From: a virus | Taxonomy: Duplodnaviria; Heunggongvirae; Uroviricota; Caudoviricetes | Virus record (IMG/VR): IMGVR_UViG_2534681934_000013 | Length of the DNA stretch: 22,551 nucleotides | Direction: 5' to 3' (one strand) | In this document: positions 1 through 9,309 of the stretch, piece after piece | Layout of the letters: the number at the start of each line of letters is the position of its first letter | Numbering within the stretch: position 1 is the first letter of the stretch | The notes under the pieces: generated by a model | Seen by the model: the letters and a program-made list of their open reading frames with translations, nothing else | What the model was told of the DNA's origin: nothing | Databases searched by the model: none | Made by a program: the position numbers and the translations under genes

Positions 1-356
1 CGCTGGCGCTGGCCAGACTGTCAGGGTTTCGTCATAAAACGGTGAAGGTGCCGGAATGGGGTAATGTCAGCGTGGTGCTGCGGGAGCCTTCGGCAGAGGC
101 CTGGTATCTGTGGCAGGAAGTGCTCAATGGTGATGGAGAGGATGACGATACCCTTTCGGTGGTGGCGAAAACCCGCCGTAACCTGGAAGCGGATGTGACG
201 CTGTTCTGCGATGTCCTGTGTGATACTGACCTGCAACGGGTGTTCACTCCGGACGACCGTGAGCAGGTGCTGGCCGTCTATGGTCCGGTACATGCCCGGT
301 TGCTGCGTCAGGCACTGGAACTGATCGCTGATGCAGAGTCGGCCAGAAAAAAGTAG
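1..356 (+). CDS. G: tail assembly chaperone G (lambda gpG-like), 5'-partial at window edge
   Basis: Frame is open from the window start (codons from nt 3) to TAG at 354-356, so the gene begins upstream. Lies directly upstream of T and the tape measure, the lambda gene order. Ends in the frameshift heptamer. Confidence 0.6.
   Translation, partial: LALARLSGFRHKTVKVPEWGNVSVVLREPSAEAWYLWQEVLNGDGEDDDTLSVVAKTRRNLEADVTLFCDVLCDTDLQRVFTPDDREQVLAVYGPVHARLLRQALELIADAESARKK
347..353 (+). promoter_or_regulatory. -1 programmed ribosomal frameshift slippery heptamer A_AAA_AAG (G to G-T)
   Basis: The heptamer a-aaa-aag is in phase with the G frame three codons before the G stop. The -1 frame is open from 353 into the T-like ORF with no intervening stop. 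Confidence 0.6.
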
Positions 357-661
357 CCCGCCCGGAAATTCGCTTTCTGATGCGACTTGCGCTCCGTCTG
401 GGGCGCACCTTATCCGAACTGCGGCACAGCCTGAGTGCGAGCGAGGCGATGATGTGGATGGAGTTCGACAGGGTATCCCCGCTGGGTGATGAGCGCGGGG
501 ATATCCGTAATGCACAGATCGTGAAAGCGGTTTTCGGGGCACAGGGGATGAATGTTGCACTGAAGGACGCCATGCTCTGCTGGGGCGAGGATGAGGATAA
601 GCCGGAGGTGGATCCGTTTGCGGCGCTGGAAGACGCGCTGAGCCTTGCAGCAATGTCATAA
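353..661 (+). CDS. T: tail assembly protein T domain, expressed as G-T fusion via -1 frameshift
   Basis: The -1 frame relative to G reads VARPEIRFLMRLALRLGRTLSELRHSLSASEAMMWMEFDRVSPLGDERGD... Position between G and the tape measure matches lambda T. Confidence 0.6.
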   Translation, partial: VARPEIRFLMRLALRLGRTLSELRHSLSASEAMMWMEFDRVSPLGDERGDIRNAQIVKAVFGAQGMNVALKDAMLCWGEDEDKPEVDPFAALEDALSLAAMS

Positions 662-671
662 ATAATGATGA

Positions 672-696
672 AAACCTGCTGTGGCAGGTTTTTTTT
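672..696 (+). terminator. putative intrinsic terminator/attenuator between G-T and tape measure
   Basis: Hairpin aaacctgc-tgtg-gcaggtt followed by a T8 run; RBS ggagaaagg and ATG 713 follow. Confidence 0.45.
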
Positions 697-712
697 GCCC
701 GGAGAAAGGTGA

Positions 713-3700
713 ATGGCGACGTTACGTGAACTGATTATCAAAATTTCGGCAAATTCACAGTCATTCCAGTCGGAGATCCAGCGGGCGTCCCGTATGGGCA
801 GTGAATATTACCGGACCCTGCAGAATGGCGGGCGTCAGGCCGCTGCGGCAGCCCGGGAGCAGCGACGTGCCCTGGCAGAACTGAACAGCCAGTTGACGGA
901 AATTCGCGGTTCTGCTGTCGGAATGGCTGGCGCATTTGCCGGTGCCTTTGCCTCCGGACACCTGATTTCACTGGCGGATGAGTGGAGTTCCGTAAATGCC
1001 CGTCTGAAACAGGCATCACAGTCATCCGATGAATTTTCGTCATCACAGAAAGTGCTGATGGATATCAGCCAGCGGACAGGCACGGCATTTTCGGATAATG
1101 CGGCCCTGTTTGCCCGTTCGGCTGCCTCGATGCGTGAATATGGTTACAGTGCCGGTGATGTACTGAAGGTGACGGAGGCCATTTCCACGGGGCTGAAAAT
1201 CTCCGGTGCCAGTACGGCTGAGGCGGGTTCGGTGATCACCCAGTTCAGCCAGGCGCTGGCACAGGGTGTGTTGCGCGGTGAGGAATTTAATTCGGTCAAT
1301 GAAAGTGGTGACCGGATCGTACGTGCACTGGCTGCGGGTATGGGCGTGGCCCGTAAAGATCTGAAGGCAATGGCGGATGACGGAAAACTGACAGCGGATA
1401 AAGTGGTCCCCGCGTTAATCAGCCAGCTGGGGATATTACGTGATGAATATGCGGCCATGCCGGAAACGGTTTCCAGTAGTATCACGAAGGTGGAAAACGC
1501 CTTTATGGCCTGGGTGGGCGGTGCGAATGAGGCCAGCGGGGTGACAAAAACGCTCTCCGGCATGCTGAACGGTGTTGCCGGACAGATTGATAATGTGGCA
1601 ACAGCCGTGGGCGCGCTGGTTGCCGTCGGGGTTGCACGTTACTTTGGCAATATGGCCTCCGGAGCGATGTCTGCCACGGCAGGACTTGTGACGGCTGCAC
1701 GTAATGAAGTTGCACTGGCGGAAGCACAGTTCAGGGGAACGCAGATTGCCACGGCGCGGGCAAGGGCAGCCGTGTACCGTGCTCAGCAGGCCGTGGCGGC
1801 AGCCCGCGGGACGGAGATGCAGATTGCAGCAGAGGCCCGTCTGGCGGCCACACAGGAACGCCTGAACAGAAATATTGCTGCCAGAACCGCCGCCCAGAAT
1901 GCGCTGAACAGTACAACGGCGGTGGGCTCACGTCTGATGAGCGGTGCGCGTGGGGCTGGTTGGTGGCGTACCCGGACTGGTGATGCTGGGGGCTGCAGCA
2001 TGGTACACGCTGTACCAGAATCAGGAGCAGGCCAGGGAGTCTGCGCGCCAGTATGCACTGACGATAGATGAAATCGCGCATAAAACGCCGTCAATGTCTC
2101 TGCCTGAAGCCTCAGATAATGAAGGACGAACACGGGCGGCGCTGACAGAGCAGAACCGGCTGATTGATGAACAGGCCAGTCGGGTGAAATCCCTGCAGGA
2201 AAAAATCGCAGGATATCAGTATGTTCTGGCGAACCCGGGCTGGACGACCGGTGACGGATTCATGATAAACCATCTGACATCGGTGAAGACCGTAACGGAA
2301 GGGCTTGCTCAGGCAACAGAGCAGCTTGCCGTTGAGCAGTCCCGTCTGGCACAGATGCAGGAAAAAGCGCAGTCCATTCAGGATGTGCTTGCCGGGCTGG
2401 AAGACCGTCGTGTGGCGTTAATTCGTCAGCAGGCGGCAGAGCAGAATAAGGTGTACCAGTCCATGCTGGTTATGAACGGTCAGTATACGGAATTCAACCG
2501 TCTGCTGGGGCTGGGGAATGAACTGCTTCAGCAGCGGCAGGGACTGGTGAATGTGCCGTTACGGCTGCCACAGGCCACTCTGGATGATAAACAGCAGAGT
2601 GCCCTGACAAAAACAGAGCGTGAGCTGGCCCTGTCCAGACTGAAAGGGGAAGAAAAAGAGCGACGTCCGACTGGGGTATGCGGCGGATGACCTCGGTTTT
2701 GTGGGGGATCCGTATCAGGAGGCGAGACAACGTTATATCAGTAATGCCCTGGAAGCCTGGCGCAATAACGAGGCGAATAAACCCAAATCCCGGGGTGGAA
2801 AATCAGAGACGGAAAAAGCGGAAGACAGTTTTTCCCGGCTGCTGAAGCAGCAGAAAGAGCAACTGGCACTGGCCGGTCAGAACACGGAGCTGGCGAAGCT
2901 GAAGTACCAGACAGCGCTGGGTGAACTGAAAACCCTGTCGGAGATACAGAAGCAGGAACTGCTGCGCAATGCGGCCCTGATTGACCAGCAAAAAATCCGG
3001 GAGCAGTTGCGGTACCGGGAAGAGACCCTGAAGAATGATAATGTGGCTGCGCGTGCATCAAATGAATCTGAACTGCTGGGGTACGGGCAGGGGGAACGAG
3101 CCAGGGAACGCATGCGGGAGTTGCAGCAGATCCGCGACAGCTTCCGCCAGAAGGATGCGGACCTTCAGTCTCAGTATCAGACCGGGGATATCAGTGAGGA
3201 TTTTTACAGACAGGCGCTGGCACAGAACGCGCAGTATCTGAGCGAACGCCTTAAGGACCAGGCAGTCTTTTATGCCGAATCGGATGTGCAGCGTGCGGAC
3301 TGGCAGAAAGGGCTGCAGGAGGGATTCAGTAACTGGGTGGATAATGCGTCCGATTACGCCTCACAGGCAGCACAGCTGGCGACGGAGGGTATCTCAGGGA
3401 TGGTGAATAACATCACGGAGATGCTGAACGGAAATAAAGTGGAATGGCGCAGCTGGGCCTCATCCGTACTGCAGGAAATATCAAAAGTTCTTATGAATGC
3501 CGCGATTGTCAACGGAATTAAGACGGCGGCAAACGGTATGTCCGGTGCGGGAGGATTTCTCGGCAGCATTGGTGACTGGCTGGGCGGAGCGGTGGCCAAT
3601 GCAAAAGGCGGCGTGTATACCTCGGCAAACCTGAGCGCGTACAGCAACAGCATTGTGGACACGCCCACGTACTTTGCGTTTGCAAAAGGGGCCGGGCTGA

Positions 3701-3915
3701 TGGGGGAAGCCGGACCTGAAGCTATTATGCCCCTGACCCGGGCGGCGGATGGCTCGCTGGGCGTACGCGCCGTGGGCAGTATGAACGGCAGTGCTGGTCT
3801 GGTGTATTCCCCGGTCTACCACATCGCCATTCAGAATGACGGGGCTAACGGACAGATAGGGCCGGAGGCGGCAGGCAGTCTTGTGCAGCTGATTGACCAG
3901 CGGGTGCAGCGGTGA
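713..3915 (+). pseudogene. H: tail tape measure protein (lambda gpH-like), reading frame broken twice
   Basis: Three consecutive ORFs in three frames (713-2071, 1944-2690, 2701-3915). Alanine-rich coiled-coil N-terminus, a hydrophobic segment (LVGGVPGLVMLGAAAWYTLY), and a C-terminus (NKVEWRSWASSVLQEI...IQNDGANGQIGPEAAG) resembling lambda H from memory (WRSFTRSVL...NNDGTNGQIGPAA). Frame changes lie near 1941-1955 and 2644-2690 (A5 run 2653-2657). Confidence 0.75.
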
Positions 3916-3948
3916 TGCTGTCCATGCGACGTGACGGAGGAATGCTGA

Positions 3949-4290
3949 GTGGCTGAGATAAAAACGCTGCATCTGGTCCCGCGTGAAGGGATGCAGGTGA
4001 GTGAGAAGCCGTCGGTGGTGAGGGTGCGGTTTGGTGACGGTTATGAACAGCGCCGCCCCACAGGGCTGAATCCTCAACTGAAGACGTTTCAGGCGGTGTT
4101 CCGGGTGACGGATGAGTCAACCCGGCGCTGGCTGGATGAATTTTTATCCTGGCATGGTGGTTACCGTGCCTTTTTGTGGCGACCGCCGAAACATAACCGG
4201 ACGGTGAGGGTTGTGTGCCGGGAGTGGAGCGTCACGGATAACGCCCGGTACAGTGATTTCAGCTGTACGATAGAGCAGGTGGTGAACTGA
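3949..4290 (+). CDS. M: minor tail protein M (lambda gpM-like)
   Basis: 113-aa product with motifs VRVRFGDGYEQRRPTGLN and FSCTIEQVVN matching lambda M as recalled (VRKVRFGDGYSQRAPAGLN...EFEQVVN). GTG start with GGAGG 8 nt upstream. Confidence 0.85.
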   Translation: MAEIKTLHLVPREGMQVSEKPSVVRVRFGDGYEQRRPTGLNPQLKTFQAVFRVTDESTRRWLDEFLSWHGGYRAFLWRPPKHNRTVRVVCREWSVTDNARYSDFSCTIEQVVN

Positions 4291-4727
4291 TGCAGAATAT
4301 TCATGAAGAAAGCCTGAACGAGTCGGTTAAGTCAGAGCAGTCACCGCGGGTGGTGCTCTGGGAAATCGACCTGACGGTGCAGGGCGGTGAGCGGTATTTT
4401 TTCTGCAATGAGCTGAATGAAAAAAGGGAGCCGGTGACCTGGCAGGGGCGGCAATATCAGGCGTACCCGATTGAGGGCAGTGGCTTTGAGATGAACGGAA
4501 AGGGCAGCAGTGCCCGCCCGTCGCTGACGGTGTCCAATCTGTTCGGTCTTGTCACCGGGATGGCGGAGGATTTGCAGAGCCTGGTGGGTGCCACGGTGGT
4601 CCGCCGCCGGGTGTATGCCCGTTTTCTGGATGCGGTGAATTTTGTGGCGGGCGGTCGTGGTTATCGGGCGGCAGAGGTAAAAAGAATAAAAAAATCCCGC
4701 AGAGTTGCGGGGACAGACAAAGATTAA
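4290..4727 (+). pseudogene. L: minor tail protein L (lambda gpL-like), 3'-truncated after about residue 113
   Basis: N-terminal 113 aa (VVLWEIDLT...GERYFFCNE...VTWQGRQYQ...RFLDAVNFV) resemble lambda L, then the sequence diverges into a short basic tail and stops at 4727; lambda L is about 232 aa. ATG overlaps the M stop (ATGA). Confidence 0.75.
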
Positions 4728-4850
4728 CGTTAAGGAGTTATTTTTGTTTCTGGTGCTCGGGCAAAAAAACATTAACGCAGAGAAATTATTAGCACCACAG
4801 TCAGTTTGTGAAAATGTGAAGATATTCAGAAGTTTTATTCAGTCATGATA

Positions 4851-4881
4851 CAGGCATCCTCCGGGATGCCTGTTGTTTTTG
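4851..4881 (+). terminator. intrinsic terminator-like hairpin immediately upstream of J
   Basis: caggcatcc-tccg-ggatgcctg (9-bp stem) followed by ttgtttttgtg. Confidence 0.5.
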
Positions 4882-4914
4882 TGCGTAACAGTTATCACAG
4901 TAAAGGGTGAGACA

Positions 4915-6755
4915 ATGGGCAAAGGTGGCGGCAAGGCGCACACGCCGGTAGAGGCAAAGGACAATCTTAAGTCCACGCAGATGATGAGCGTGATTGATGC
5001 CATTGGTGAAGGGCCGATTGAAGGTCCGGTGAAGGGGCTGCAGAGTATCCTGGTGAACAAAACCCCGCTGACGGACACGGACGGTAATCCTGTGATACAT
5101 GGTGTGACAGCGGTCTGGCGCGCCGGGGAGCAGGAGCAGACACCACCTGAAGGCTTTGAGTCCTCCGGGGCGGAAACCGCACTGGGCGTGGAAGTGACGA
5201 AGGCAAAGCCGGTGACGCGCACCATTACGTCCGCGAACATTGACCGCCTGCGGGTCACCTTCGGGGTGCAGTCACTGTTGGAGACCACCTCAAAGGGCGA
5301 CCGTAATCACTCTTCTGTCCGACTGCTGATTCAGTTGCAGCGTAACGGTAACTGGGTGACGGAAAAGGATGTCACCATTAACGGCAAGACCACCTCGCAG
5401 TTTCTGGCGTCGGTGATTCTGGATAATCTGCCTGAGCGGCCCTTTAACATCCGGATGGTCCGGGAGACAGCGGACAGCACCTCGGACCAGCTGCAGAATA
5501 AGACGCTCTGGTCGTCATACACCGAAATCATCGATGTGAAACAGTGCTACCCGAACACGGCGATTGTGGGGCTGCAGGTGGATGCGGAGCAGTTTGGCGG
5601 TCAGCAGATGACGGTGAACTACCATATCCGCGGTCGCATCATCCAGGTACCGTCAAACTATGACCCGGAAAAACGCACGTACAGCGGCATCTGGGACGGC
5701 AGCCTGAAACCGGCATACAGCAACAACCCTGCCTGGTGCCTGTGGGACATGCTGACCCACCCGCGCTACGGAATGGGAAAACGCCTGGGGGCGGCGGATG
5801 TGGACAAGTGGGCGCTGTATGCCATTGCGCAGTACTGCGACCAGACGGTCCGGATGGTTCCGGGGGCACAGAGCCGCGGATGACTTTCAATGCGTACCTG
5901 TCACAACAGCGTAAGGCGTGGGACGTTCTCAGTGATTTCTGCTCGGCGATGCGCTGTATGCCGGTATGGAACGGGCAGACGCTGACGTTTGTGCAGGACC
6001 GTCCGTCAGATGTGGTGTGGCCCTACACCAGCAGTGATGTGGTGGTGGATGATAACGGCGTGGGGTTTCGCTACAGCTTCAGCGCCCTGAAGGACCGCCA
6101 CACGGCGGTGGAGGTGAATTACACCGACCCGCAGAACGGCTGGCAGACCTCCACGGAACTGGTGGAAGACCCGGAAGCCATACTGCGCTACGGACGCAAC
6201 CTGCTGAAGATGGATGCGTTCGGCTGCACCAGTCGCGGTCAGGCCCACCGTGCCGGGCTGTGGGTGATAAAGACCGGACTGCTGGAAACGCAGACGGTGG
6301 ATTTCACGCTCGGGTCACAGGGGCTGCGTCACACACCCGGTGACATTATTGAAATCTGTGATAACGACTATGCCGGGACCATGACCGGCGGACGTATCCT
6401 GTCCATCGATGCCGCCAGCCGCACCCTGACACTGGACCGTGAGGTGACCCTGCCGGAGACCGGTGCCGCCACGGTGAACCTGATTAACGGCAGCGGTAAG
6501 CCGGTGAGCGTGGCCATCACTGCACACCCCGCGCCGGACCGGATACAGGTCAGCACCCTGCCTGATGGCGTGGAGACATACGGTGTGTGGGGGCTCTCCC
6601 TGCCGTCACTGCGCCGTCGCCTGTTCCGCTGTGTCTCCGTCCGGGAAAACACGGACGGCACCTTTGCCATCACGGCGGTGCAGCACGTACCGGAAAAAGA
6701 AGCCATCGTGGATAACGGTGCTTTAAGGTCAATGTTTTTTATCAAAACATTTTAA
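4915..6755 (+). pseudogene. J: tail tip/host-specificity protein J (lambda gpJ-like): N-terminal ~600 aa only, with one frameshift
   Basis: MGKGGGKAHTPVEAKDNLKSTQMMSVIDAIGEGPIEGP closely resembles the lambda J N-terminus. Frame changes at about 5850 (QYCDQTV then PDGSGGTEPRMTFNAYL in the next frame). Similarity continues to ...AITAVQHVPEKEAIVDNGA at about 6722, then is lost; lambda J is about 1130 aa. Confidence 0.8.
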
Positions 6756-6815
6756 GCAGGCAGCTGTTACGCCATCACTACGATGGCATACAGTTAATCA
6801 AATAGATGAGGTTGG

Positions 6816-7454
6816 TTAAATATCTTGTTGAATTTTAAAGCATACTCCCAATATGCAAGATAGATCATCCAGCATAATTGAAGGGTAGCGAGGATTCGTG
6901 GGGACTAAAAGAATATCCGGCCCTTCTATCTCCAGTTTGCGAATGACAGGCGTTGTGGTCCCTTTGGGTAAGGCAAGGACAATATTTCCTGGTTGTACGA
7001 TTCGATCGGGATCAACAAAAACTGTTGAACCATTTGGGATGGAAACTCCACCACCAGATGTCGACATACTGTCACTCTCTAGAACAACAGCAAAGGTATT
7101 GGCCGGGATTTCTCCGACAAGCTGCACACAAGAGGTTATTGAGGAATTTTTCATATAATCACTCCAGCTTGCTGCCTGCTGAAGTGATAGTAGCGGAACC
7201 GTTTTTATCGGCGGTAAAGATAGATCAAGCGAATCACCTGTATTTAACTCTCCTCCATTAAGAAGCCAATTTTCGTTTACTTTCAATATCTTTGCCAGTG
7301 AACTTATGTAACGCGAGGACGGCGCTCCTCCACCGTTCATCCATTGACTTACGGAGCCTTTTGATGCGCCAGTGGCATTGACAAGGTCTTTGCCTTTCAA
7401 GTTTAGCGCATGCATACGTTGGGTTATGCGTTCAGATATTGTTTGCTTGTTCAT
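6816..7454 (-). CDS. cI: CI-like phage repressor (N-terminal HTH, C-terminal S24/LexA-like autopeptidase)
   Basis: 212 aa with an N-terminal HTH (LNLKGKDLVNATGASKGSVSQWMNG) and a C-terminal region with the Ser...Lys arrangement typical of S24 peptidases (ESDSMS...VIRKL). Divergent from a Cro-like gene; no SD before the ATG, compatible with a leaderless message as in lambda cI. Confidence 0.75.
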   Translation of the reverse strand: MNKQTISERITQRMHALNLKGKDLVNATGASKGSVSQWMNGGGAPSSRYISSLAKILKVNENWLLNGGELNTGDSLDLSLPPIKTVPLLSLQQAASWSDYMKNSSITSCVQLVGEIPANTFAVVLESDSMSTSGGGVSIPNGSTVFVDPDRIVQPGNIVLALPKGTTTPVIRKLEIEGPDILLVPTNPRYPSIMLDDLSCILGVCFKIQQDI

Positions 7455-7545
7455 GTTTTGATTTTAAAACACAGATGGTTTTGTTTCTTGACTTTCTTTG
7501 GTTTTGATTATTAAACTTTTGGCGTTCAGTTTTATGGAGCGACTC
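7455..7545. promoter_or_regulatory. divergent repressor/cro promoter-operator region (putative)
   Basis: AT-rich 90-bp spacer between divergent cI-like and cro-like genes; contains TTGACT and the inverted repeat aaaac-N7-gtttt. Individual operators not resolved. Confidence 0.4.
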
Positions 7546-7788
7546 ATGAAAAAATCAGAAGTATTAGGCTATTTTGGCGGAGTTGTTAAAACAGCCGCCG
7601 CTCTAGGAACGTCAAAAACCACAGTCAGCATGTGGGGGGAAGACGTTCCGTGGAAATGGGCGTTGCTAATTCAGGCAGTCACTGCCGGGGCGCTCAAATA
7701 TGAGTTACACATACCGACGGTTGTCATTCCCGATTCTGATCATAATCCGCCTTCTAACCAAGGGGGGATTCATGAAAATCAAGCATGA
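7546..7788 (+). CDS. cro: Cro-like HTH regulator
   Basis: 80 aa starting MKKSEVLGYFGGVVKTAAALGTSKTTVSMWGED (HTH); GGAG 5 nt upstream of ATG 7546; divergent from the repressor. Confidence 0.55.
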   Translation: MKKSEVLGYFGGVVKTAAALGTSKTTVSMWGEDVPWKWALLIQAVTAGALKYELHIPTVVIPDSDHNPPSNQGGIHENQA

Positions 7789-8197
7789 ACACATCCGCAT
7801 GGCGATGAATGCCTGGGCGCGTCCTGATGGCGAAAAAGTTCCGGCAGCTGGAATAACCCAGGCTTATTTTGAGTTGGGTATGACGTTTCCTGAACTGTAC
7901 GACGACAGCCATCCGGAAGCCCTGGCTCGCAATACCCAGAAAATTTTCCGCTGGATAGAGAAAGACACCCCTGATGCAGTTGAAAAAATGCAGGCTCTGT
8001 TACCGGCGATCGAAAAGGCAATGCCGCCTCTGCTGGTGGCCCGTATGCGCAGTCACAGCTCTGAATATTACCGTGAGATCGTCGAACGGAGGGATCGGCT
8101 GGTGAAAGATGTGGATGATTTTGTCGCAGCGGCGATCGCCTGGGGCACCCTGACTAACAGTGGGGGTCAGCCTGGTAATGCTGTTGTCGTGCATTGA
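7772..8197 (+). CDS. CII-like / YdaT-like regulatory protein (tentative)
   Basis: 141 aa starting MKIKHEHI with SD aaggggggatt; sits where CII sits in lambda. Family assignment is from memory of Rac ydaT and is uncertain. Confidence 0.45.
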   Translation: MKIKHEHIRMAMNAWARPDGEKVPAAGITQAYFELGMTFPELYDDSHPEALARNTQKIFRWIEKDTPDAVEKMQALLPAIEKAMPPLLVARMRSHSSEYYREIVERRDRLVKDVDDFVAAAIAWGTLTNSGGQPGNAVVVH

Positions 8198-8265
8198 CCA
8201 ACAATATTCATGCCGGATTTCTTCCGGATGTTCGAGGGTAAAGTTCGGTATCAGAAGAGGTGAGT

Positions 8266-9309
8266 ATGGCTAATGCCTGGCTCAGATTGTGGCATGACAT
8301 GCCAAATGACCCCAAGTGGCGAACGATTGCCAGGGTATCAGGACAGCCAATCGCAACAGTGATGGCAGTGTATATCCATCTTCTGGTGAGCGCGTCACGA
8401 AATGTCACGACATGTCACGGCGTGTCACTACGTGGTCACATTGATGTCACGACGGAAGATTTAGCAAGTGCGCTTGATGTGACGGAAGACGTAATTGATT
8501 CAATTTTGCATGCAATGCAGGGGCGGGTTCTGGATGGTGACCTTATTTCCGGATGGGAAAAACGTCAGGTGCTGAAAGAGGACAATGGTAACGTTTCGCA
8601 AACGGCAAAATCCCCGGCAGAGCGCAAGAGAGCGCAGCGGGAGCGGGAAAAGCTGCGGAAACATAATGCTGATTGTCACGATGAGTCACGACGTGTCACG
8701 CATCTGTCACGACAAGTCACGACAGATAAAGATACAGATAAAGATACAGATACAGAATTAAACCCCACACATAACGCGCGCGAGAGTATTCCGACCAGTG
8801 AGTCGAATGGTGCGCCGTTGCAGACAGCCGAACCTGAATACCTGGACGGCCTGAGCGAACCGATCGGGAAATTTTCGATGACTACTGTCTGGCAGCCGTC
8901 GCCGGATTTTCGACAACGGGCAGCAGTGTGGGGTATGGCTCTGCCTGAGCCGGAATTTACACCTGCTGAGCTTGCCGCATTCCGGGATTACTGGATGGCG
9001 GAGGGGAAGGTTTTCACGCAGGTTCAGTGGGAGCAGAAATTTGCCCGCCACGTGCAGCACGTCAGGGCACAGGTAAAACCAGTCAGCAAGGGGGGAAGCC
9101 ATGCAGCATCAGGTGGCACGGCATCACGGGCAGTTCAGGAAATCCGGGCTGCACGCGAACAGTGGGAACGTGACAACGGATTTATCAGCAACGGAAACGG
9201 CCTGGAAGCTGTGGGAGCTCATGGGGGAGGTGTATTCGAACCGCTGGACTCAGAAGAACGGGGCCGCACCTTCGAAGCTCTGGATTGCCCAGATTGGTGC
9301 GATGACTGA
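8266..9309 (+). CDS. replication initiator (functional analogue of lambda O; DnaT-like C-terminal region suspected) with internal iterons
   Basis: MANAWLRLWHDMPNDPKWRTIAR N-terminus; two clusters of GTCACG repeats lie inside the gene, as the lambda origin lies inside O; immediately upstream of a P-like gene. Confidence 0.6.
   Translation: MANAWLRLWHDMPNDPKWRTIARVSGQPIATVMAVYIHLLVSASRNVTTCHGVSLRGHIDVTTEDLASALDVTEDVIDSILHAMQGRVLDGDLISGWEKRQVLKEDNGNVSQTAKSPAERKRAQREREKLRKHNADCHDESRRVTHLSRQVTTDKDTDKDTDTELNPTHNARESIPTSESNGAPLQTAEPEYLDGLSEPIGKFSMTTVWQPSPDFRQRAAVWGMALPEPEFTPAELAAFRDYWMAEGKVFTQVQWEQKFARHVQHVRAQVKPVSKGGSHAASGGTASRAVQEIRAAREQWERDNGFISNGNGLEAVGAHGGGVFEPLDSEERGRTFEALDCPDWCDD
8394..8451. 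repeat. iteron cluster 1: six GTCAC(G/T/A) repeats at 10-11-bp spacing
   Basis: GTCACG at 8394, 8404, 8414; GTCACT 8424; GTCACA 8435; GTCACG 8446. Confidence 0.55.
8675..8756. repeat. iteron cluster 2 (five GTCACG repeats) plus adjacent tandem gataaagataca repeat
   Basis: GTCACG at 8675, 8685, 8695, 8706, 8716, then gataaagataca repeated about 2.5 times (encodes DKDTDKDTDTE). Confidence 0.55.

Follow-up and report, generated by a model that had tools for sequence, protein, structure and literature searches.

A homology-free junction between a truncated J gene and a cI-type immunity region in Escherichia coli O157:H7 strain DEC4E: a probable deletion across two adjacent prophages

The 22,551-nucleotide (nt) stretch recorded as IMGVR_UViG_2534681934_000013, referred to here as the window, is the entire draft contig AIFO01000027.1 (GCA_000249455.2) of Escherichia coli O157:H7 strain DEC4E. 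Within it the phage tail-tip gene J breaks off in mid-gene and is joined directly to an immunity region whose cI-type repressor gene runs towards it. We consider it likely that this junction is real and that it marks an illegitimate, strain-specific chromosomal deletion of about 14-15.5 kb across the boundary between an Sp12-like and an Sp11-like prophage. The kind of event is already known, since prophages decay through deletions and this region is one of recognised instability; what is new is this allele, seen once in a draft contig.

The junction and its parental sequences

An earlier note on this DNA had placed the end of J similarity near 6722 and suggested that alignment against intact lambdoid phages would define the breakpoint. 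Window positions 5800-7800 were compared by megablast with 50,697 phage records and with the complete genomes of E. coli, 5,426 in number. Query positions 1-922 (window 5800-6721) matched J genes, and query positions 923-2001 (window 6722-7800), which abut the J piece, matched the region annotated as 'LexA family protein', Cro/CI and YdaT. In a three-way alignment the window follows J up to ...GGTGC and the repressor side from TTTAAGG..., which puts the breakpoint between c6721 and t6722 with 0 shared bases on either side. The last base of J is thus 6721, in agreement with the earlier estimate. The features meeting at this point are as follows.

4915..6721, plus strand: J (tail-tip / host-specificity gene), 5' portion of about 52%, Sp12-like; Pfam FNIII-A_GpJ and Phage-tail_3
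6721..6722: probable deletion junction, blunt, 0 bp microhomology, equivalent to 12637/28183 in the relative L003 and roughly to 2,215,585/2,200,032 in Sakai
6722..6755, plus strand: foreign tail on the J frame, 10 out-of-frame codons (LRSMFFIKTF) and a stop (6753-6755), from Sp11-like intergenic DNA

The two halves of the window match single O157:H7 chromosomes at 99.7% identity (left, 3-6721) and 99.9% identity (right, 6722-22551). In strains NCCP 13892, 7636, 1613 and NCCP 13894/13906 they keep a colinear order on one strand, with 15,545 bp between them; the spacing is 14,011 bp in strain 319, presumably since a copy of IS1203 in the integrase gene (int) is absent there. The Sakai annotation assigns the left half to the tail end of Sp12 and the right half to the early region of its neighbour Sp11, with identities of 97.6-98.4% and 99.9%, respectively (BLAST against NC_002695.2, 2,180,000-2,226,000). 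The join is of the deletion type, an upstream piece followed by a downstream piece on the same strand. The earlier note had proposed that two prophage segments were fused by a deletion or recombination event, or that they are tandem remnants, and both descriptions hold for these neighbouring prophages. By our estimate, random chimeric joins in a genome of 5.5 Mb would unite colinear loci no more than 16 kb apart in only about 0.3% of cases. A different arrangement is seen in Z1834 (NZ_CP062702.1), where the two halves are on opposite strands and separated by about 330 kb, which fits the large prophage-bounded inversions known in O157:H7.

No homology in register was found at the breakpoints, and the longest word common to the sequences within 1 kb on either side of both is 11 nt. 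Because the breakpoints and their surroundings share no sequence, repeat collapse and homologous recombination can be set aside, and the blunt, homology-free joint argues for illegitimate recombination. The short direct repeats GCCATCAC, found in J (6666) and to the right of the junction (6771), lie away from the breakpoints and are judged irrelevant to them.

As far as 6721 the retained J sequence shares 99.7% identity with J of O157:H7 genomes, and it is cut after about codon 602 of about 1,159. A 1-nt frame shift near 5849 makes the window copy a pseudogene before the cut; J is frameshifted in relatives too, one of which carries it as a 3,479-nt gene annotated as such. Translation of the fusion open reading frame (ORF) ends in ...EAIVDNGA-LRSMFFIKTF-stop. 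This exact product is recorded from AIFO01000027.1 only, a count limited by the fact that the start of the ORF depends on the probable error at 5849, so that other assemblies may escape it. A protein search with the last 57 amino acids (aa) of the ORF returned 24 short J fragments only and missed the window's own protein as well, and is therefore too shallow to serve as a negative. J paralogues remain 94-100% identical until about 100 nt beyond the breakpoint and then drop to 65-79%, and the tail genes of the left side are present in 9-15 copies per O157 genome. Further upstream, window positions 4653-4914 hold 262 bp in place of about 2 kb of Sakai Sp12, a stretch that takes in K, I and the 3' end of L; the 99.7% relatives, in which L is annotated as incomplete, are arranged likewise, and this is therefore an older deletion common to a lineage.

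Relatives carry 14.0-15.5 kb between J and cI, from lom to a DUF1391 gene, that the window lacks. Its content was read from the annotation of relatives including Sakai, with the DicF RNA taken from an Rfam scan. On the tail side the missing DNA comprises lom, two tail-fibre genes and the 3' 48% of J, together with two effector genes, nleG7 and a DUF1076 gene where the Sakai annotation places nleI/nleG2-4. Mobile DNA in the interval consists of an IS256-family remnant split by ISEc8 and a copy of IS629/IS1203, the latter adjoining dinI in Sakai and lying within int in NCCP 13892. Also absent are dinI, a recE fragment and a fragment of int, the int of the downstream prophage being only a fragment in relatives, together with the leftward genes (a DUF1482 gene, dicB, DicF RNA, two hypothetical genes and the DUF1391 gene) and a leader of about 200 nt. 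The earlier note had remarked that genes normally flanking J and cI, among them N, int and xis, are absent here. The remark is sound in that relatives do hold additional DNA at this place; a lambda-like N is, however, not to be expected, since the leftward operon of this phage type reads DUF1391, hypothetical, DicF, dicB, DUF1482, recE and int, with no lambda-like N beside cI.

The immunity region at the junction

To the right of the junction a complete cI-OR-cro-ydaT switch is retained, in which OR denotes the right operator, PR and PL the rightward and leftward promoters and OL the left operator.

6727..6732, minus strand: putative PL -35 hexamer TTGACC, retained; consensus match only, Sp11-like
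6731..6751: palindrome AATGTTTT-TTATC-AAAACATT, 9 nt from the breakpoint and wholly within the right-hand segment
6816..7454, minus strand: cI-type repressor gene with an ORF of 212 aa, of which the draft annotates 199 aa starting at 7415; N-terminal helix-turn-helix (HTH) and C-terminal S24 self-cleavage domain
7453..7517: OR region, operator copies at 7453-7471 and 7500-7517
7488..7517: PR-like promoter, TTGACT (7488-7493), 18 nt, TAAACT (7512-7517); consensus match in a promoter scan
7547..7788, plus strand: cro-type gene, 80 aa, P22_Cro family (1e-15); Cro/CI family in the annotation of relatives
7772..8197, plus strand: YdaT-family gene in the cII position; Pfam YdaT_toxin

The prediction that the 3' end of a convergent CI-like repressor gene begins about 90 bp past J proved accurate, as its stop codon is 94 nt from the breakpoint. 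Pfam matches to the repressor are Peptidase_S24 (8e-13) and HTH_3 (2e-4, a weak match under the Pfam cut-off), and the gene is 100% identical at the DNA level in O157:H7 strain Z1830. The divergent arrangement of an HTH and S24 repressor gene and a Cro-family gene is that of a lambda-type CI/Cro switch. Asadulghani et al. (PMC2669165) called the Sp11 repressor disrupted, and in genomes with 100% identity at this place the RefSeq annotation is confined to the C-terminal 112 aa (339 nt, 'LexA family protein' / ECs_2209). The ORF is nonetheless open over 212 aa including the HTH, and both phage vB_EcoS-640R1 and the draft call a 199-aa protein. The ATG at 7454 sits within the OR operator beside a TAAAAT box, and the repressor mRNA may therefore be leaderless, as it is for lambda cI. 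A third, degenerate operator copy overlaps the -10 of the PR-like promoter. For the CP-933P homologue of the YdaT protein a CII-like role has been shown (PMC8630535), and by analogy the window protein would be expected to act likewise.

The earlier note had regarded the AT-rich palindrome as sitting at the junction. Its sequence and coordinates were given correctly; it is, however, native to the right-hand prophage and not a feature of the junction. It is present in all those relatives in which J is not beside it, and is conserved in phage vB_EcoS-640R1; the junction was therefore neither created by the palindrome nor its creator. The motif ATGTTTT-N(4-8)-AAAACA has only two sites in the window, against an expected 0.00, one being the palindrome and the other 7453-7471 in the cI-cro gap. 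A T-run within it is T6 in the window and T7 in relatives, which leaves the relatives a 6-nt spacer, and their palindrome agrees with the OR site at every one of the 15 specified bases (TGTTTTGAT-NNN-AAAACA). The 46-kb relative has two exact copies of this pattern, at OR and abutting the putative PL -35. The palindrome is most likely an OL-type operator of the cI/Cro pair, beside PL, because it copies the operator of the cI-cro gap and abuts the -35 hexamer.

A promoter scan of the relative revealed a PL-like site (TTGACC, 17 nt, TAAACT) abutting the palindrome and having the same -10 hexamer as the PR-like site; the PL region is likewise conserved in vB_EcoS-640R1. The right breakpoint falls within the spacer of this putative promoter, so that the -35 and the operator are kept and the -10 TAAACT and the leftward operon are gone. 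In the window the promoter scan called no PL-like promoter at the junction, and the best replacement -10 that could be picked by eye from the J sequence is CACGAT, with 3 of 6 matches. A role of the palindrome as an intrinsic terminator of cI was considered and rejected, given its AT-only stem, the lack of a T-run on the cI strand and a negative scan. A separate GC-rich hairpin at 6771-6787 (GCCATC-ACTAC-GATGGC), about 30 nt past the cI stop on the cI strand and likewise lacking a T-run, may serve between cI and OL as a terminator or a site of processing. With its new J flank the region has an unusually stable predicted fold (z = -3.85), because J provides the complementary GCCATCGT.

The more reusable by-product of this comparison is a map of operators and promoters for Sp11-type immunity, in which the predicted OL equals the OR site and the putative PL and PR share the -10 TAAACT. 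No description of such a map was found in the papers that could be searched.

The proposed deletion and competing explanations

Both prophages are described as already defective and non-excisable in Sakai (Asadulghani et al., PMC2669165), and PMC7430833 cites Chen et al. 2013 for spontaneous deletions in the Sp11-Sp12 region under laboratory conditions. The insertion sequence (IS) IS629, together with the IS-excision enhancer (IEE), is reported to give deletions beside the IS that range in size from a few nt to over 40 kb (PMC9943667). In the course that we propose, an initial break may have occurred at the IS629/IS1203 or ISEc8 copy that lies in the interval in relatives, which is a lead only, and the ends would then have been joined without homology by illegitimate end-joining. 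Two prophages would thereby have become a single immobile composite lacking an internal attachment-site (att) and int junction. The upstream element would be left without lom, its tail-fibre genes, its nleG effector cargo and the half of J that binds the receptor, and the downstream element without the leftward operon under repressor control, to which DicF and dicB belong. The repressor could still bind the predicted OL, now orphaned and facing antisense J.

Several observations weigh against a genuine deletion. The junction rests on one draft contig sequence only. With at least 80% query coverage it was found at 0 places in the complete E. coli genomes and the phage records, and exact 28-mers spanning it were absent from IMG/VR, the GTDB representatives and the JGI metagenomes, a weak negative as these sets hold few O157 drafts. 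Other records of the fusion protein were missing from the look-ups, the protein search being shallow. The contig is error-prone: alignment with the closest genome shows 12 indel events, amounting to 13 gap positions, of which about half fall in homopolymer runs. Its tape-measure gene is broken into three ORFs; an exact look-up of the first of them gave AIFO01000027.1 as its single record, and NCBI assigns the proteins to E. coli DEC4E. The left breakpoint falls within about 100 nt of the point where the J paralogues diverge, a typical spot for assembler mistakes, and the complete lack of microhomology is contrary to the microhomology-mediated joining proposed for IEE.

The main rival is an assembly chimera, in which reads from the Sp12-like J were misjoined to reads from the Sp11-like PL region and DEC4E in fact keeps the full 14-15.5 kb. 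We regard such a misjoin as unlikely. An early draft from whole-genome shotgun sequencing, with many single-base indels and three clusters of single-nucleotide polymorphisms (SNPs) that suggest mixed paralogous reads, is the setting in which it might arise; the junction is confined to AIFO01000027.1, and in each of nine other contexts of the identical repressor, AIFJ and AIFG from sister DEC drafts among them, DUF1391/DicB is the left neighbour. The 9-15-fold repetition of the left tail genes and the nearby divergence of the J paralogues point the same way. However, the junction offers no repeat or homology by which an assembler could have been misled, and a colinear, same-strand join of loci about 15 kb apart is what a deletion predicts and is rare for a random chimera. 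By reasoning alone, mate-pair circularisation or a missed linker would yield the permuted order, downstream piece then upstream piece, and contigs are normally assembled from several overlapping reads.

Homologous recombination between the prophages, mediated by repeats as in the adjacent-prophage deletion of the FRIK strains, or recombination mediated by Int, has precedent in that adjacent O157 prophages are known to lose DNA between direct repeats (PMC7430833). With common words near the breakpoints no longer than 11 nt and out of register, with breakpoints in J and in a promoter spacer rather than at att sites, and with the downstream int reduced to a fragment in relatives, we judge it very improbable. 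The high mosaicism of lambdoid phages would in principle allow a natural phage type with a short J directly before the repressor; nothing specific speaks for it, and we give it next to no credence. No genome or phage record unites the two halves, and intact relatives with a repressor straight after a short J numbered 0 among the 5,426 genomes, the 252 matching phage records and the nine other repressor contexts, the last of which carry DUF1391/DicB on the left. J is moreover severed mid-gene with a 10-codon out-of-frame tail, and the putative PL is split between its -35 and -10.

If the deletion is real, DEC4E lacks several nleG-family effector genes, lom, the tail-fibre pair, DicF and dicB of its relatives. 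This bears on typing by pulsed-field gel electrophoresis and whole-genome sequencing and on the effector inventories of DEC4E, which is a reference-collection strain, and it adds one homology-free junction to the deletions catalogued for the deletion-prone Sp11-Sp12 region; beyond such strain bookkeeping its importance is slight. That the deletion was selected rather than neutral, the cut in PL removing from an S24-repressor prophage, in one step, the att/int junction and an SOS-inducible, potentially toxic leftward operon with DicF, dicB and their neighbours, seems to us quite doubtful. Were it true, two cryptic prophages would have been welded into a stable, harmless composite keeping repressor, operators and immunity, and the junction would be a concrete case of prophage domestication through a promoter-precise deletion.

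Other features of the contig and comparison with known systems

Comparison with the closest complete genome located single-base indels at 688, 1950, 2663, 3908, 5849, 6734, 16005, 20031, 20053, 20688-20698 and 21182. They look like draft sequencing errors rather than biology, and they break the tape-measure gene (713-3915) up into three ORFs; the frame shift of J at 5849 is probably due to them as well. SNP clusters of 5-6 substitutions each, at 23-155, 4221-4266 and 21420-21543, stand out against otherwise near-identical O157 genomes and suggest gene conversion between paralogous prophages or paralogous reads mixed in the consensus.

Downstream of the immunity region an Rfam scan detected a sok antitoxin RNA at 12382-12556 (113 bits), with a hok/mok gene adjoining in relatives, and an STnc100 small RNA at 17871-18043 (105 bits). 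Two tRNA genes (16849-16921 and 17025-17098; Ile-CAT-type and Arg-TCT in the Sakai annotation) follow a 237-aa ORF (16107-16820) annotated as an HTH / phage regulatory protein. Their layout is that found upstream of stx in Shiga toxin (Stx) phages; stx genes are absent from the window. A gene for a 616-aa SASA-family carbohydrate esterase (18180-20030) lies after STnc100 and before the lysis cassette.

Two further sequences show Sp11-type regions in other states. In JH946094.1 (GCA_000303415.2, 5079-6644) the YdaT gene is cut to 93 aa and fused to chromosomal genes for a sugar / major facilitator superfamily transporter, mannitol dehydrogenase and YdfZ; this contig keeps the leftward operon intact, indicating independent decay on the other side of the immunity region. 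The sister DEC draft AIFJ01000034.1 (9935-14036) carries the same repressor with an intact integrase of 431 aa, a DUF1233 gene and a full-length RecE-like gene (820 aa), and looks like a less decayed Sp11-type prophage.

The closest known system is the Sp12-Sp11 pair of Sakai, Sp12 being CP-933P of EDL933 (PMC8630535). It occupies the same locus and consists of the same two prophages, and loss of DNA across their boundary has been reported, as far as the account of Chen et al. 2013 in PMC7430833 relates. The left half of the DEC4E contig is nearer to a lineage variant in which K, I and the 3' end of L are missing as well, and its junction, from J codon ~602 to the PL spacer with 0 bp of homology, was found in no other sequence. 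The deletions attributed to IS629 and IEE may be compared with the present case, whose junction is without long homology; IS629/IS1203 lies inside the missing interval in Sakai and NCCP 13892, at different sites, and is presumably absent from int in strain 319. They differ in that the IEE model joins ends at microhomologies, of which DEC4E has 0 bp, and in that neither DEC4E endpoint is at an IS end in relatives. The immunity region itself compares well with that of lambda (cI-OR-cro-cII, with OL and PL left of cI): a repressor gene with HTH and S24 domains diverges from a Cro-family gene, the operator motif of the cI-cro gap is repeated beside a leftward promoter-like site downstream of cI, and a YdaT gene takes the cII position. 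In contrast to lambda, the Sp11 type is without rexAB and N, its leftward operon opens with a DUF1391 gene and carries DicF/dicB, and it has one clear OL copy; in DEC4E, PL has in addition parted from its -10 and its operon.

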